A stretch of DNA of 7,135 nt from a virus (IMGVR_UViG_648276662_000018); one strand, 5' to 3'. Shown: positions 1,975 through 7,135, counted from the stretch's first letter. The notes: generated from the sequence alone by a model not told the origin. Translations and numbers: made by a program.

Positions 1975-4662
1975 CTATTCCACAACATCATCTTCTATCA
2001 ATTCAGCCTTATTTAGTTGTTCCTTAAGCTTATTCCATGCAGAATCCTCAGGCATCTGTACTCGCACAGAAACGAATTGATTAGCAGGAATGTCGATCGG
2101 GTCACCGTTCGAAACACCAGGGATGTCGTTACGTGCAAAAACTGGCGAGTTATCGTGAGTGCGGTGAAACGTTTTCACCAACACAGATCCATCTTGGTTA
2201 ACAACATAATCCAGCCAGATGAGCGGCTGCTTGTTTCGGTCCTGCGGTATTTCAAATCCACCATCAATCCCCCCCCATGAAGCATCTGCATTCAGACCTA
2301 CGCAACCCTCAATCAGATATTCCCCCAATGCCAGCCGTGTGACGGTTACCCCATCTGATTCGCGATTTGTTTCACTACTACCGTCTGAGAAAATCTTCAC
2401 AACCGGAGAGGCTTTTTTGATGAAACCACTTGAATCGACGGTCGTGTTCAGCGACGACCATGCCTCAGCCCAGCCTGTGTTACCTGCGCGAATAGCATCG
2501 TCTGCGTAGCGGAAGAACAGTTTTGATGTTGTGGACATGAATATCTGCAACACACGGTTTTTTGCATATCCTGACTCCCATAATGCTCCGTTACCTGTTC
2601 CTTCTGGCTGCCAGTTTGTCACCCCACCTGCAGCTCCTATACTTACACCAGTAGACCAGTCTCCAGCAAATTCTGGAAGATTTAGTGAGTTAGGTGAGCG
2701 AATTGATACATCAACCAGACCAGGGGATCCGAGAATCGACATGCTGCGGGAGGACACCTTAGTAAAAGAGTTGTACCCGCCGTTTTTGGAAATCCTTCCT
2801 GTATAATTATTAGCCCTGTTAGTTCCATTAACTGTAATTTCCCAGGTATCGCCGTTGATGAAGTCGATCTGCAATAGGCAGAATGCTGGCAGCGTCATCT
2901 GTCCTGGCGCAGATGGCCCACCTTCAAACAGTGGCATATCCTGTTCAAGATATGTCACATATCTACCTGCATCTGTATTCCGCAAATAGTCACAAATAGC
3001 CTGTGCCGATGTAAATAGCGCAATACCATCAGCCGGGTTTACAGGGTGACGGCCAGCGTTAATCACCCTTCCGCGAGGGTTAAATAACTGTGATGAGGCA
3101 TTGGATAGCGGAGTCATGTCTACTGTTCCAGGTTCATTAGATGGACAGTTAGCGCGAATGATGTTTAAAGTCCTATAATTTGATCCGCCCCCATTGTCAT
3201 AGCGAATAGACTGTAGAAGATACAATTCCTCAGAGCCAGAAATATCACAAGACTGCACCCCCTCATTTTCAGTGGAGTAAACACTCTTCCCTGAATAACT
3301 ATCCCAGTATGTTTTGAAATCTGCAGGTGACAGCAGGTACTGACCTAATTCTGAACCATTAAGGCTGTACTCAATATAACCCTGCAACCCTGCGAAAGTA
3401 TTTCCAGATCCCGCCGTGGTAGATGCACCAATACCAGCAAATATCCGTTGAGAACCAAGAGCGACACCCTGCCGTTTTGGTTTACCGGCTCCGCGACCTC
3501 CAACATTTGCATCAACCGTAATAGTCCCCATTGGACTGTAAGATCCTTCTATAAGGCTGTTAATATCCAGTGTGTTAAAGATATTGGATACACCTGTCTC
3601 AACATCAAAAATTTTCGGCCAACCCATATCCGCATTTTCGTATATCAGGGTATTACCAAAGCCACTAAACTGATATCGCACTCCAAGGCGTGTTGATTCA
3701 GTGAAGTTTGTAATCTGCGTTTTATCAACCAGTGTACGCGGATCTTCGATAGGGTAAATTCTGATAGTGCGAGATGGGCTGTACGGCAGCAGGATGTAAC
3801 GCTGTCCTGCCACTCGGTAAACGTGGATGCCTTCTGGTGCACCAACGTTATTCGGAAAATGAAGACGTGTTACCAATGCTCCTGTTACCCAGTCATGCAC
3901 CGTAACCCATACCGATGCGGGGTCTAGCGTCTGCCAGCCGATGTATACCATTCCATCATTGCTGTCTATGTAAATCCCCTGAAATCCCATGGTCGTGTAA
4001 CCATACTGATCTTTAAGATCTGCGGTAATCTCATCGTCTATGATGCTGAATTCTAATTTCCAGTTCAGCGGCCTACGCGTACCACTGACATGCCTGGAAA
4101 TATGAGACAGGTAGCTTTTAACCCCGCCTGCGATAATGTATCTATGTTTGATCTCAGTAACAATTCCAGTTGCAACTGGAGTGCATTTATAGACGCCGCC
4201 GTTTATTCTAATAAAATTGGTTCCTGTTAGATTATCCCCAATGGCAACGTCTTTTCTACTATTCTTAAACGTCCCATTACCTAAGTCAGTAACAAGCAAT
4301 GCCCCTTCTACATATTTCAATGACTGATCAGGGTCATACTTCAGCACATTAGGAAAATAGAACTGCTGTGTACCATACGCATCATAAACAGCCATAGAAT
4401 GGCCTTGCACGGTAACGAATTTGGCAATCTGTCCGTTATATACTGGATACCCTGCGGCATTGATGACGATTGGCTGTGCAACAGGAACGTGAGAGCCGTC
4501 TTCGTTTTCCACATAAACCTGAATCTGGTTTTCTGGATTTACAGGATCAGTGTCAATTTTACCGATATAAATTTTGCCATTGGCTACGGCTTTAAAAGAA
4601 CGCGCCATAGTGAAGAGTTGCGAAGGCATCGATACGATCACATTGGCTGTAATGTCTGTCAT
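1975..4662 (-). CDS. Phage tailspike protein: P22 gp9-type N-terminal head-binding domain fused to a divergent receptor-binding/enzymatic body
   Basis: 895-aa ORF. The first ~115 aa ([11 protein letters not shown]...[26 protein letters not shown]...ENEDGSHV...[13 protein letters not shown]...NVLKYDPDQ) closely match the P22 tailspike head-binding domain as recalled. ATG at 4660-4662 with GGAG 9 nt upstream; stop TAG at 1975-1977. Confidence 0.9.
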
Positions 4663-4862: not shown

Positions 4863-5786
4863 TTAAAGTTTAATTGAGTGGCACGCTCTATCACGTATCG
4901 CTGCGAATGAAGCTATCTCTTTAAGTGCCCAGCTTTGCTCAGCAATTAAATGGCGAAGTGCTTTTAGCTCGGCTCTTACTGCTGAAACGTCATACCCCGC
5001 TTTTGTCAGAATATCGATTAGTTTATACGCCGGACTGCATTCAACGAGTGCGCTGCGGTCAAGAGCAACAGTATCACCGCATTGCTGCCTGATAATGGCG
5101 TAAGGTGCATTTTCAGAAAACCATGAAATCGGGAAGTTAATATCCAGTTTTGGCGCTGGTAACTCTTCTTGCTTGCCAATGAACTCACCTTCAAGCGGAA
5201 CTCGAGCTGCAAGTGACAGTGCTTCGGTAAACTGCTCCTCACTGATTTCTTTATATGAACATCCAAAATGGGATTTCAGTGACGACCACATGGTGATCAT
5301 CGCCTTAGCCTGTTTTTCTTTTGGCAGAGACTGACCGCGACTCATGACGAGTTGTTTAATGGCTTCCTGCTGTTCAGTGGTAATTTTACCCGGCAACGCC
5401 TTTTTAGCTTTGCGTGGGTTAACTACATGACCTTTAGTCCAGTACTCGTAGAGCACATCGTCACACTCTTCCTGATACTGGATTACCTTGTCGCGGATTT
5501 CAGGGCGGACTTTGTTTGGCTGAATGCTTGAAAGCCAAGCCGCAAACTTACGAAAGGCAAGGCATATCATTAACTGTTTACCGCCAGCAGAAGGTATTTC
5601 GATTTCCGAAATACCTTTGACAAATCTCTGTTTTAATTTAACAAATTGAGCAGCCCAAACCATACCCATGCCTTCTACAACGGGTTTCATAGGAACGTAA
5701 GGTTCATTGTTAATGCTGACCAAAAAGAGATTTGTTCCGTGGAATGGAACGTTGATTGTATGTTCTGCAATTGCTACACTCGTCAT
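4863..5786 (-). CDS. ant: Phage antirepressor (Ant-like)
   Basis: 307-aa ORF immediately downstream of arc in the same orientation and upstream of the tailspike, matching P22 immI synteny and the size of P22 Ant (~300 aa). AGGAA about 9 nt upstream of ATG 5784-5786. Assignment rests on synteny and size, not on recalled sequence. Confidence 0.75.
   Translation of the reverse strand: MTSVAIAEHTINVPFHGTNLFLVSINNEPYVPMKPVVEGMGMVWAAQFVKLKQRFVKGISEIEIPSAGGKQLMICLAFRKFAAWLSSIQPNKVRPEIRDKVIQYQEECDDVLYEYWTKGHVVNPRKAKKALPGKITTEQQEAIKQLVMSRGQSLPKEKQAKAMITMWSSLKSHFGCSYKEISEEQFTEALSLAARVPLEGEFIGKQEELPAPKLDINFPISWFSENAPYAIIRQQCGDTVALDRSALVECSPAYKLIDILTKAGYDVSAVRAELKALRHLIAEQSWALKEIASFAAIRDRACHSIKL
5752..5780 (+). 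promoter_or_regulatory. Candidate promoter for a sar-like antisense RNA (within the first codons of ant, opposite strand)
   Basis: Plus strand: TTGATT (5752-5757), 17-bp spacer, TACACT (5775-5780). Predicted start ~5787, directly opposite the ant start codon and ribosome-binding site. Confidence 0.35.
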
Positions 5787-5858
5787 GTCGTTAATTCCTA
5801 TGCGTGGTTTTACGATACCGAAGCCCTGACTGTTCCCGCAGTTGGGGCTTCAACTTTC
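5787..5858 (+). ncRNA. Candidate sar-like small antisense RNA covering the ant ribosome-binding site
   Basis: Predicted ~70-nt plus-strand transcript ending at a 13-bp hairpin (5820-5832 paired with 5839-5851, 6-nt loop) followed by AACUUUCU. The stem contains two G-U wobble pairs that would be C-A mismatches on the minus-strand RNA, so the structure is favoured on the plus strand. P22 is known to make a ~68-nt antisense RNA (sar) at this position. Confidence 0.4.
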
Positions 5859-6053
5859 TGATCTATCAGTTATATCTTTCCCTTCATATACTTCACCTAT
5901 ATTGCTAATGCTGGCAGAACATCCAAGATGCTTGTATCTTATGATGTCCAACACGCAGTCACTACACAGCATCCGACCTGTTTCTTTAGAGTAAATGTAT
6001 GTTTGATCAGCGTCTGATTCGCTAATGCCGCAGAAACAACATTCTTTACTCAT
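5850..6053 (-). CDS. Small Cys-rich protein (putative zinc-ribbon), unknown function, inserted between arc and ant
   Basis: 67-aa ORF with CCxC near the N-terminus and CxxC about 21 residues later. Its ATG overlaps the arc stop as ATGA (6050-6053), indicating translational coupling; GAGGGGG lies ~9 nt upstream. P22 has no gene between arc and ant (as recalled). Confidence 0.6.
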   Translation of the reverse strand: MSKECCFCGISESDADQTYIYSKETGRMLCSDCVLDIIRYKHLGCSASISNIGEVYEGKDITDRSES

Positions 6054-6202
6054 ACCATTACCCCCTCTCTCTTCAAGCTGTCTATCAGGCGCTTGATAAC
6101 CTCTGAGTTAAACGACCTGCACTCTTCCTTTGCCCTGCTACCTATAGCATCCTTTAACGACTGCGGCATCCTTACCAAAATCTTACTTATTTCTTTCTCC
6201 AT
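6050..6202 (-). CDS. arc: Arc-like ribbon-helix-helix transcriptional repressor
   Basis: 50-aa product MEKEISKILVRMPQSLKDAIGSRAKEECRSFNSEVIKRLIDSLKREGVMV aligns with P22 Arc (R-P, GRSxNSE, KKEG pattern). Start set at ATG 6200-6202 with GGAGGG 6 nt upstream; the longer ORF beginning at 6238 has no ribosome-binding site. Confidence 0.85.
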   Translation of the reverse strand: MEKEISKILVRMPQSLKDAIGSRAKEECRSFNSEVIKRLIDSLKREGVMV

Positions 6203-6238
6203 GTTACCCTCCACACAAACAACTCTTTTCGAATACAA

Positions 6239-6267
6239 AAGATAGCAAAGTGAGTATATCTAGTCAA
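6239..6267 (-). promoter_or_regulatory. Candidate Pant-like promoter for the arc operon
   Basis: Minus strand: TTGACT (plus 6262-6267), 17-bp spacer, TATCTT (plus 6239-6244), about 40 nt upstream of the arc start. The -10 overlaps the left arm of the inverted repeat below. Confidence 0.45.
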
Positions 6268-6293
6268 AATTCTTTTGCATACACTTTGCTATC
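6241..6293. promoter_or_regulatory. Pair of 12-bp perfect inverted repeats (GATAGCAAAGTG ... CACTTTGCTATC) in the arc-mnt divergent control region; candidate Arc/Mnt operators
   Basis: Arms at 6241-6252 and 6282-6293 are exact reverse complements separated by 29 bp (centre-to-centre ~41 bp). They lie between the divergently transcribed arc (6202, minus) and mnt (6317, plus). Confidence 0.5.
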
Positions 6294-6316
6294 AAATTGA
6301 ATACCAAAGGTGTGAT

Positions 6317-6565
6317 ATGGCAAAGGGTGTGTCAATTTCTCCAACTACGGTAAGAATCCCTGAATCTTTACGCGAGGCTCTTGCTGTCAGAGCATCAAAA
6401 AATGGTCGCTCTGTTAACTCCGAGATCGTCATGATTTTGCAAGCCGCGATTGATGAAGATAGGTCGCCAAAGTCAGTTGAGTCATTTGCTCAGCAAGAAG
6501 CTGACAAATTCAAAGAGGCGCTGCTTGAGACGCTAAAGACCATGTATGGTAAGGATGAAAAATAA
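6317..6565 (+). CDS. mnt: Mnt-like ribbon-helix-helix repressor (maintenance of lysogeny)
   Basis: 82-aa product MAKGVSISPTTVRIPESLREALAVRASKNGRSVNSEIVMILQAAIDED... aligns with P22 Mnt (RxP, REAL, NGRSxNSE, C-terminal TLKxxYxK). Start ATG 6317-6319 with AAGGTG 4 nt upstream; the upstream in-frame extension from 6275 has no ribosome-binding site. Confidence 0.85.
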   Translation: MAKGVSISPTTVRIPESLREALAVRASKNGRSVNSEIVMILQAAIDEDRSPKSVESFAQQEADKFKEALLETLKTMYGKDEK

Positions 6566-7101
6566 TGCTGCACACAATTCATTTCTTATGCCCCGTTAAC
6601 ACTGCCACTGTTGGGCAACTTCAGAACCACTGTCTCACCGCATTATCTCAAGGCGCAACTGAATTAAATATCCATATATCAAGTCAGGGAGGGGAAACTG
6701 CCGCTGGCTTTACTGCGTATAACTTTCTTAAGTCACTCCCTGTTACCGTTAGAACTCACAACATAAGCAATGTTGAATCCATAGCTAATATCGTTTTCCT
6801 GGCTGGCTCAGAACGTTTCGCAAACCCATTATCAAGATTCCTGTTACATCCTCTATTATGGTGCTTTGCCTCCCCAGCCGCCGACCATGCCAGATTGAGA
6901 GAGTACGGGAAATGCCTCGATAACGATCTTGATCGCTTCGTTGAGACGTTCAATATCGACATCGGAACCCATATTAGGTGGGCATCCCTGATAGCAGACT
7001 CGACCATTTTGGATGCTAACAAGGCTCTTGAGCATGGCATAATTAATTCCATAAAAACTGCAAGGCTGGCATCCAATCAGGCAAACTGGTGGGTTGTTTG
7101 A
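6565..7101 (+). CDS. ClpP-family (peptidase S14-like) serine peptidase homolog, N-terminally truncated relative to ClpP; moron gene co-transcribed with mnt
   Basis: 178-aa ORF whose ATG overlaps the mnt stop (TAATG at 6563-6567), with AAGGAT ~9 nt upstream. By-eye alignment to E. coli ClpP: ISSQGGETAAG vs INSPGGVITAG; THNISNVESIANIVFLAG vs STICMGQAASMGAFLLTAG with the catalytic Ser aligned without gaps; RFANPLSRFLLHP vs RFCLPNSRVMIHQP with the catalytic His conserved; ALEHGIINSI vs AVEYGLVDSI. Confidence 0.8.
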   Translation: MLHTIHFLCPVNTATVGQLQNHCLTALSQGATELNIHISSQGGETAAGFTAYNFLKSLPVTVRTHNISNVESIANIVFLAGSERFANPLSRFLLHPLLWCFASPAADHARLREYGKCLDNDLDRFVETFNIDIGTHIRWASLIADSTILDANKALEHGIINSIKTARLASNQANWWVV

Positions 7102-7111
7102 TGGGTAAATC

Positions 7112-7135
7112 ATGATTACTCCTTATAAAAAACCC
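7112..7135 (+). CDS. Possible start of a further gene downstream of the ClpP-like gene (partial, runs off the window)
   Basis: ATG at 7112-7114 opens a frame MITPYKKP... that is still open at the window end, 10 nt after the ClpP-like stop. Only a weak GGGTAAA ribosome-binding site; too short to assess. Confidence 0.25.

Follow-up and report, generated by a model that had tools for sequence, protein, structure and literature searches.

Escherichia coli is normally regarded as an organism with a single ClpP, and the Enterobacterales are usually treated likewise. Second ClpP isoforms have been described in other groups, including P. aeruginosa (ClpP2), Mycobacterium (ClpP1P2), Listeria (ClpP1), and Chlamydia (ClpP1P2); these are chromosomal paralogs, most with fuller N-termini than that of the phage protein described below. 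The concept common to them is a ClpP paralog that is unable to engage an unfoldase alone and modulates ClpXP by way of mixed tetradecamers (PMC13056064, PMC12900304). The closest described system is the "ClpP1" of Pseudomonas plecoglossicida (PpClpP1; AXM94812; PDB 9UXT; PLoS Pathog 2026, PMC12900304), a protein of 183 aa whose N-terminus is truncated and whose active site has the arrangement Ser73-His96-Pro151. Cryo-EM places it in a homotetradecamer with a dilated axial pore of 42.7 Å, and its peptidase activity is 13-fold below that of the canonical paralog; the S73A and H96A substitutions abolish this activity, while a change at Pro151 has little effect (PMC12900304). PpClpP1 does not bind ClpX, and alone it degrades neither casein nor GFP-ssrA. 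Together with canonical ClpP, it forms a stable heterotetradecamer in which peptidase activity rises, ClpX is bound, and the degradation of GFP-ssrA and casein is slightly improved (PMC12900304). Bortezomib inhibits PpClpP1 selectively. The paper describing PpClpP1 makes no mention of prophages (PMC12900304).

The stretch of DNA analyzed here (hereafter the window; 7,135 nt) comprises dacD together with the right-hand end of a prophage that is P22-like (Lederbergvirus-type); positions 6200-7135, the segment of 936 bp that was compared, match the E. coli MS 21-1 chromosome at 100% identity. Prophage gene order places the tailspike gene at 1975-4662 on the minus strand. On the same strand, Pfam and PHROG matches delineate an immI-module operon (4863..6238) consisting of arc (6050-6238; Arc, PF03869), a small Cys-rich ORF (5850-6053; phrog_7150), and ant (4863-5786; P22_AR_N, PF10547). 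For arc there are two candidate starts: TTG at 6238 would give a product of 62 aa, and the shorter product of 50 aa annotated in RefSeq and in the phage record begins at 6202. As in the immI region of P22, an mnt-like gene diverges from arc and ant. This gene (6317..6565, plus strand; ATG at 6317, stop codon at 6563-6565) encodes a repressor of 82 aa from the Arc family of ribbon-helix-helix proteins, with a helical tail at its C-terminus (Pfam Arc, PF03869, E = 9.6e-11); its Pectobacterium ortholog, in the equivalent position, matches Repressor_Mnt (PF11423) as well. The ORF of interest, which encodes a 178-aa ClpP-like protein, follows on the plus strand (6565..7101). Past the end of the window, a convergent gene with a P63C domain and a small ORF of membrane/coiled-coil character precede the ejection-protein genes, which are homologous to genes 16, 20, and 7.

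The ClpP-like protein matches Pfam CLP_protease (PF00574) with E = 2.2e-11 and 44.4 bits against a cut-off of 20.2. As the match spans positions 37-180 of the 182-position profile, the protein begins after the N-terminal part of ClpP. An AF2 model built from 25 homologs has a mean pLDDT of 90, and Foldseek aligns it to E. coli ClpP with a TM score of 0.75 (probability 1.00, 23-24% identity) and to PDB 9UXT with a TM score of 0.92. A search of the PDB with the family profile likewise recovered 9UXT at E = 1.4e-51 (178 bits), compared with 2e-13 (54 bits) at best for canonical ClpPs; phmmer recovered 9UXT at E = 1.6e-35, and PpClpP1 is 40% identical to the phage protein. An initial reading of the window, made by eye from the sequence alone (the sequence-only reading), had placed a ClpP-like peptidase at 6565-7101 and called for a profile and Foldseek check of a ClpP/S14 fold; both kinds of search agree with that assignment.

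RefSeq names this protein "ATP-dependent Clp protease proteolytic subunit" (WP_000903306.1). Several features nonetheless indicate that it is not a canonical ClpP: the catalytic Asp is replaced, the N-terminal loops are absent, the residues of the presumed unfoldase-docking pocket are mostly polar, and scores to the NCBIfam ClpP models all fall far under their cut-offs (40 bits against 228 at best; 19 against 308.6 for TIGR00493). A word-indexed search returned 68 clusters of proteins of approximately 180 aa, mainly from Enterobacterales where the source names an organism. An exhaustive profile search extended this to 254 clusters (at the 50% identity level) with E ≤ 1e-30, well apart from thousands of canonical ClpPs with weaker scores. 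By these searches, the ClpP-like proteins of approximately 180 aa form a large, discrete family, the short, atypical PpClpP1 type, characterized by a truncated N-terminus, a Ser-His pair, and a non-acidic third position, and the phage ORF belongs to it. Strong purifying selection acts on the gene (pN 0.118 vs. pS 0.666, dN/dS about 0.08, as measured against the Pectobacterium ortholog); in most pairs at greater distance, synonymous sites have reached saturation. The sequence-only reading had also presented the gene as a candidate novel function; this does not hold for the kind of protein, as RefSeq already names it as a ClpP subunit and the atypical short family has both a cryo-EM structure (9UXT) and enzymology through PpClpP1.

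Both catalytic residues are invariant. Among the best 149 representatives of the family, from which residue conservation was taken, Ser72 (codon TCC, 6778..6780; ClpP Ser97, PpClpP1 Ser73) and His95 (codon CAT, 6847..6849; ClpP His122, PpClpP1 His96) are each conserved in 149 of 149, in keeping with the earlier suggestion that the Ser and His of the triad are in place. The counterpart of the ClpP "SPGG" oxyanion-hole motif is S39-S40-Q41-G42-G43 (codons at 6679..6693), of which S39, S40, G42, and G43 are invariant in alignment A1; the two glycines of the oxyanion hole are kept in 147 of 149 and 149 of 149 representatives. A complete Ser-His-Asp triad is absent, the counterpart of ClpP Asp171, a residue on which the sequence-only reading had made no statement, being Ser146. 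The six commonest residues in this column across the 149 representatives (Gly, Ala, Arg, Gln, Pro, and Ser) include none that is acidic. PpClpP1 and the phage protein belong to the same length class (183 vs. 178 aa), both are missing the axial loops and helix, both keep an SxGG oxyanion motif, and in both the Ser-His pair is accompanied by a non-acidic third residue (Pro151 in PpClpP1, Ser146 in the phage protein). We consider it somewhat probable, as part of the overall explanation developed below, that the ORF product is a catalytically competent ClpP-fold subunit that works through a dyad of Ser72 and His95 and has its oxyanion motif intact.

Relative to E. coli ClpP (MEROPS S14), the fold is retained, the Ser and His of the active site can be aligned, as can the glycines of the oxyanion hole, and the handle-region helix is present; the phage protein differs in having no propeptide, axial loops, or helix A, in the replacement of Asp171, and in the polar character of its IGF/LGF pocket positions. 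The phage protein starts at strand beta-1, so that the N-terminal axial loops and helix A are absent. The truncation had been put at approximately 35 residues by eye; E. coli ClpP carries 40 precursor residues (26 in the mature protein) ahead of the position aligned to residue 3 of the phage protein. Short N-termini are typical of the family, whose median overhang before strand beta-1 is about five residues. The ORF cannot be extended upstream, because its start is the first start codon after an in-frame stop. In E. coli ClpP, the pocket that receives the IGF/LGF loops of ClpX and ClpA (the ADEP pocket) is formed by what we take to be residues Y60, Y62, F82, I90, L114, and L189; the phage protein has N, H, S, H, N, and K at the respective positions, most of them polar. 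On the strength of these presumed pocket residues, the phage protein is predicted to lack the hydrophobic docking pocket for ClpX and ClpA.

A subunit without N-terminal loops or a docking pocket might act as a poison or decoy, stacking on or titrating host ClpP rings so that fewer faces remain to which ClpX or ClpA can dock, Clp proteolysis is damped, and ClpXP substrates are stabilized in the lysogen. The failure of PpClpP1 to bind ClpX and its low intrinsic activity fit this idea as well. However, the invariance of the Ser, the His, and the oxyanion motif across 149 representatives argues that catalysis matters, and the heterocomplex formed by the homolog is more active, not less. Purely inhibitory stacking accordingly strikes us as distinctly unlikely.

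Profile similarity also extends to phage prohead proteases, and phage phiv205-1 (MN340231) carries the gene under the annotation of a head-maturation (prohead) protease. The best PHROG match is indeed to head maturation proteases (phrog_94, E = 7e-21), and the NCBIfam model for ClpP-related head maturation proteases (NF045542) is matched at E = 5e-13; these enzymes resemble the phage protein in having a ClpP-like core without axial loops. The NF045542 score, however, is 49.3 bits against a cut-off of 120, and the phage protein is not extended at its C-terminus by a scaffold or capsid-targeting segment. Its gene belongs to immI and runs opposite to the structural genes, and in other phages it is found outside head modules. 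Capsids of the P22 type, moreover, mature without a protease. The nearest structure is a cellular-type ClpP tetradecamer, and a search of BFVD found no close viral relative. Genomic context and sub-threshold scores together lead us to reject this annotation, to which we give hardly any credence.

The ClpP-like ORF is tightly linked to mnt. The two reading frames meet in a TAATG stop/start overlap (6563..6567), the ATG of the ClpP-like ORF sharing the A of the mnt TAA, and an AAGGA Shine-Dalgarno sequence (6551-6555, plus strand) is positioned 9 nt upstream of the start. In Pectobacterium, where the protein has 80% amino-acid identity, the 1-nt overlap is kept; in Providencia (66% identity), the genes do not overlap and are separated by a gap of 30 nt. 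Downstream, a strong, bidirectional intrinsic terminator (AAAAACCCACC-TGAC-GGTGGGTTTTT) begins 27 nt past the stop codon of the ClpP-like ORF and is common to the convergent P63C gene. Its start is at 7128..7135, and it runs on to the equivalent of 7153 beyond the window, as located by a terminator scan of the identical E. coli MS 21-1 locus (L001 12929-12954). The overlap, the Shine-Dalgarno sequence, and the terminator define mnt and the ClpP-like ORF as a compact two-gene unit, in agreement with the coupling that the sequence-only reading had drawn from TAATG.

The divergent arc/mnt control region (6239..6316) contains a perfect 12-bp inverted repeat with arms at 6241-6252 and 6282-6293 (GATAGCAAAGTG / CACTTTGCTATC), spaced by 29 bp and flanking the divergent promoter region; a third, imperfect copy at 6317-6328 overlaps the start of mnt. 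Judged from sequence, these repeats are candidate Arc/Mnt operators, unlike those of P22. A promoter scan of the MS 21-1 locus identified a Pant-like promoter on the minus strand (TTGACT-17-TATCTT, L001 12068-12040), and a scan of the same locus for consensus promoters detected none for mnt on the plus strand.

In P22, sieA, orf59a, and mnt share a region, and expression from this region in the lysogen is an established part of P22 biology. Since the ClpP-like ORF forms a two-gene unit with a lysogeny repressor gene, its product is probably made in the lysogen; transcribed together, the two genes would yield the peptidase whenever Mnt is made. According to the P22 SieA paper, the prophage expresses sieA, whose location is between the homologs of genes 16 and 9; the paper describes a plasmid with sieA, orf59a, and mnt, and makes no mention of Clp. 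The ClpP-like ORF occupies the equivalent slot, downstream of mnt and between genes 16 and 9. The proposal that it takes the place of sieA is therefore consistent with that paper as far as the region is concerned, but the slot runs from mnt to the ejection-protein genes and not, as had been stated, to the tail genes. SieA and the phage protein have no kinship of sequence or fold, and for the latter a soluble protein of ClpP fold is predicted. In MS 21-1, the remainder of the slot that extends from mnt to gene 16 (L001 12956-14433) is taken up by the convergent P63C-domain gene, whose product has 330 aa, and by an ORF of 109 aa that combines a hydrophobic helix at the N-terminus with a coiled coil; a multi-pass membrane protein resembling SieA was not found in this interval.

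Position in the sieA region invites the explanation that the protein is a stand-alone anti-phage effector of superinfection exclusion or abortive infection, in which a homo-oligomeric, wide-pore peptidase would attack the proteins of incoming phages with no need for host ClpP. The occurrence of homologs on the opposite strand in further slots typical of prophage cargo, the invariance of the catalytic residues, and the dilated pore of the PpClpP1 homolog are all in line with such a role. The defence models of PADLOC-DB 2.0, however, yielded zero families at E ≤ 1, and no literature on a defence role was found. PpClpP1 alone left both casein and GFP-ssrA undegraded, and chromosomal members of the family in Pseudomonas, Azotobacter, and Massilia reside amid housekeeping and stress genes, a setting that does not speak for defence. 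We regard this explanation as unlikely. The Gifsy defence protein GiPD474 is an ATPase and unrelated.

The distribution of the gene provides the broadest view of its behavior. Of 5426 complete E. coli genomes, 128 (about 2%) carry it, and in 121 of these the nucleotide identity is ≥99%; carriers include the type strain and many ExPEC/APEC isolates, and among the E. coli matches listed it is nearly always directly 3' of an Arc-family gene. Six of 50,697 phage records contain it. The position after mnt in a P22-like immI is shared by E. coli, Pectobacterium (80%), and Providencia (66%). In the lambdoid siphophage Escherichia phage PhiR12_1, a module of ant, arc, mnt, and the ClpP-like gene (L003 4606-6618) is inserted between the tail-tip genes K and L and is 98.6% identical over the aligned 652 bp, which cover the end of mnt and the ClpP-like gene. 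This copy indicates that the immI module and its cargo move between podophage and siphophage genomes. Elsewhere, the gene is found in the interval that separates the lysis cassette from the terminase genes (Klebsiella, a 52% variant in E. coli, Leclercia at 75%, Rahnella, and Enterobacter), with a betaproteobacterial copy also adjoining terminase genes; between N and the early-left recombination genes (Proteus); and in the tail modules of myophages (Chromobacterium, Pantoea, and Erwiniaceae). The ClpP-like gene is thus prophage cargo in Enterobacterales, where it occupies at least four slots, and in a few other Proteobacteria.

In 17 of 19 other prophage loci with called genes, the ClpP-like gene is solitary and on the strand opposite to both flanking phage genes; in the remaining two (L025, L026), a single small unannotated ORF on the same strand adjoins it. 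No consistently conserved partner gene was found across the prophage loci compared. Solitary occurrence, opposite strand, and the lack of a conserved partner constitute the signature of a "moron," that is, of cargo expressed independently of the lytic operons. The pairing of peptidase and mnt, the conservation of which had been raised for examination, is kept in the P22-like prophages of Pectobacterium and Providencia, but it does not define the gene, which is found alone elsewhere.

This pattern bears directly on a possible role as an immI-specific regulator, a protease that removes leaky Ant or Arc and so secures lysogeny. Such a role is suggested by probable co-transcription with mnt, the repressor of ant, and by retention of the pairing in P22-like prophages of E. 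coli, Pectobacterium, and Providencia as well as in the lambdoid phage with the same module. The Leclercia homolog (75% identical) and those at 52-59% identity, however, stand alone in prophage regions with no mnt, arc, or ant nearby. Because homologs in other slots do without mnt, the linkage to mnt is a property of the immI module, not of the gene, which argues against a function specific to Ant or to immI; the earlier suggestion of a protease acting on incoming Ant is weakened by the same homologs. The protein also has no substrate-recognition domain. An immI-specific regulator is on these grounds very improbable.

The Cys-rich ORF of the same module (67 aa, CxxC...CxxC), which is situated between arc and ant and whose start overlaps the arc stop, was also inspected. 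It matches phrog_7150 with E = 1e-49 and is called in phiv205-1 and unannotated in the RefSeq record of MS 21-1. A by-eye resemblance to the N-terminus of ClpX raised the possibility of a mimic of the ClpX zinc-binding domain; this is not supported, as the BLASTP alignment is confined to a CxFCG stretch of 11 residues (E = 0.027) and a PDB search gave only weak RING-finger matches.

Taking together the fold, the conserved catalytic residues, the coupling to mnt, the cargo distribution, and the purifying selection, the explanation that we narrowly favor is that the phage protein is a PpClpP1-type subunit, carried as prophage cargo and made in the lysogen, which stacks with host ClpP rings into mixed barrels. 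By analogy with PpClpP1, the protein would assemble into heptameric rings or tetradecamers that are unable alone to recruit an unfoldase. Phage rings would then stack on canonical host ClpP rings, and the resulting mixed barrels would dock ClpX or ClpA through the host ring while presenting different active sites in the other half, so that the peptidase core of ClpXP and ClpAP in the lysogen would be altered. In consequence, ClpXP/ClpAP substrates might be turned over at altered rates, superinfecting phages might be hindered, or the effect might be a subtler one. Among the roles first proposed for the ORF was that of a ClpP mimic co-assembling with host ClpP; this gains support by homology, through the co-assembly demonstrated for the 40%-identical PpClpP1 (PMC12900304).

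Two differences qualify the analogy. PpClpP1 is chromosomal and surrounded by housekeeping and stress genes, whereas the phage gene is prophage cargo coupled to mnt; and the tetradecamer, the lack of ClpX binding, and the co-assembly with canonical ClpP have been shown for PpClpP1 only. Given an identity of 40% and the chromosomal rather than prophage-borne setting of PpClpP1, its choice of partner may not carry over to the ClpP of E. coli. The physiological effect may also be slight, since the gain of the heterocomplex on protein substrates is small (PMC12900304).

About 2% of complete E. coli genomes carry the gene in a prophage and may thereby possess a second ClpP isoform. Should this be so, the composition of ClpXP and ClpAP, and possibly the response to ClpP-targeting drugs, would then differ between lysogens and non-lysogens, and the gene would represent a new class of prophage cargo that directly modifies the protease core of the host. 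A more far-reaching version, which we offer tentatively and think doubtful, is that a portable ClpP isoform travels with temperate phages of Enterobacterales and turns the single ClpP of the host into a ClpP1P2-like hetero-protease during lysogeny, reprogramming ClpXP and ClpAP for the benefit of the prophage. Such a benefit could, for example, come from altered stability of host stress regulators or of the proteins with which superinfecting phages replicate or regulate their genes, and it would amount to lysogenic conversion or defence acting on the proteolytic core itself. The ClpP-like gene lends itself to a direct test of the idea, being small, working as one unit, and offering an obvious active-site mutant.

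Atypical ClpPs as mobile prophage cargo in Enterobacterales appear to be the unreported element here: literature searches, including those on exclusion and defence and on phiv205-1, found no paper on a prophage-borne ClpP-like gene and no phage-borne example of an atypical ClpP isoform. The chromosomal side of the family is represented by relatives in Pseudomonas and Azotobacter (67-88% identical to PpClpP1), which are located amid metabolic and small stress-protein genes; members in Massilia and an Actinomycetota MAG also look chromosomal. Several of the Pseudomonas and Azotobacter genes (L028-L032) adjoin small general-stress proteins of the KGG or CsbD type, a neighborhood that hints at stress-linked expression of the chromosomal clade. 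On the prophage side, the genome of E. coli ExPEC XM (NZ_CP025328.1) contains three copies of the ClpP-like gene, which suggests that several prophages with this cargo reside in a single strain.
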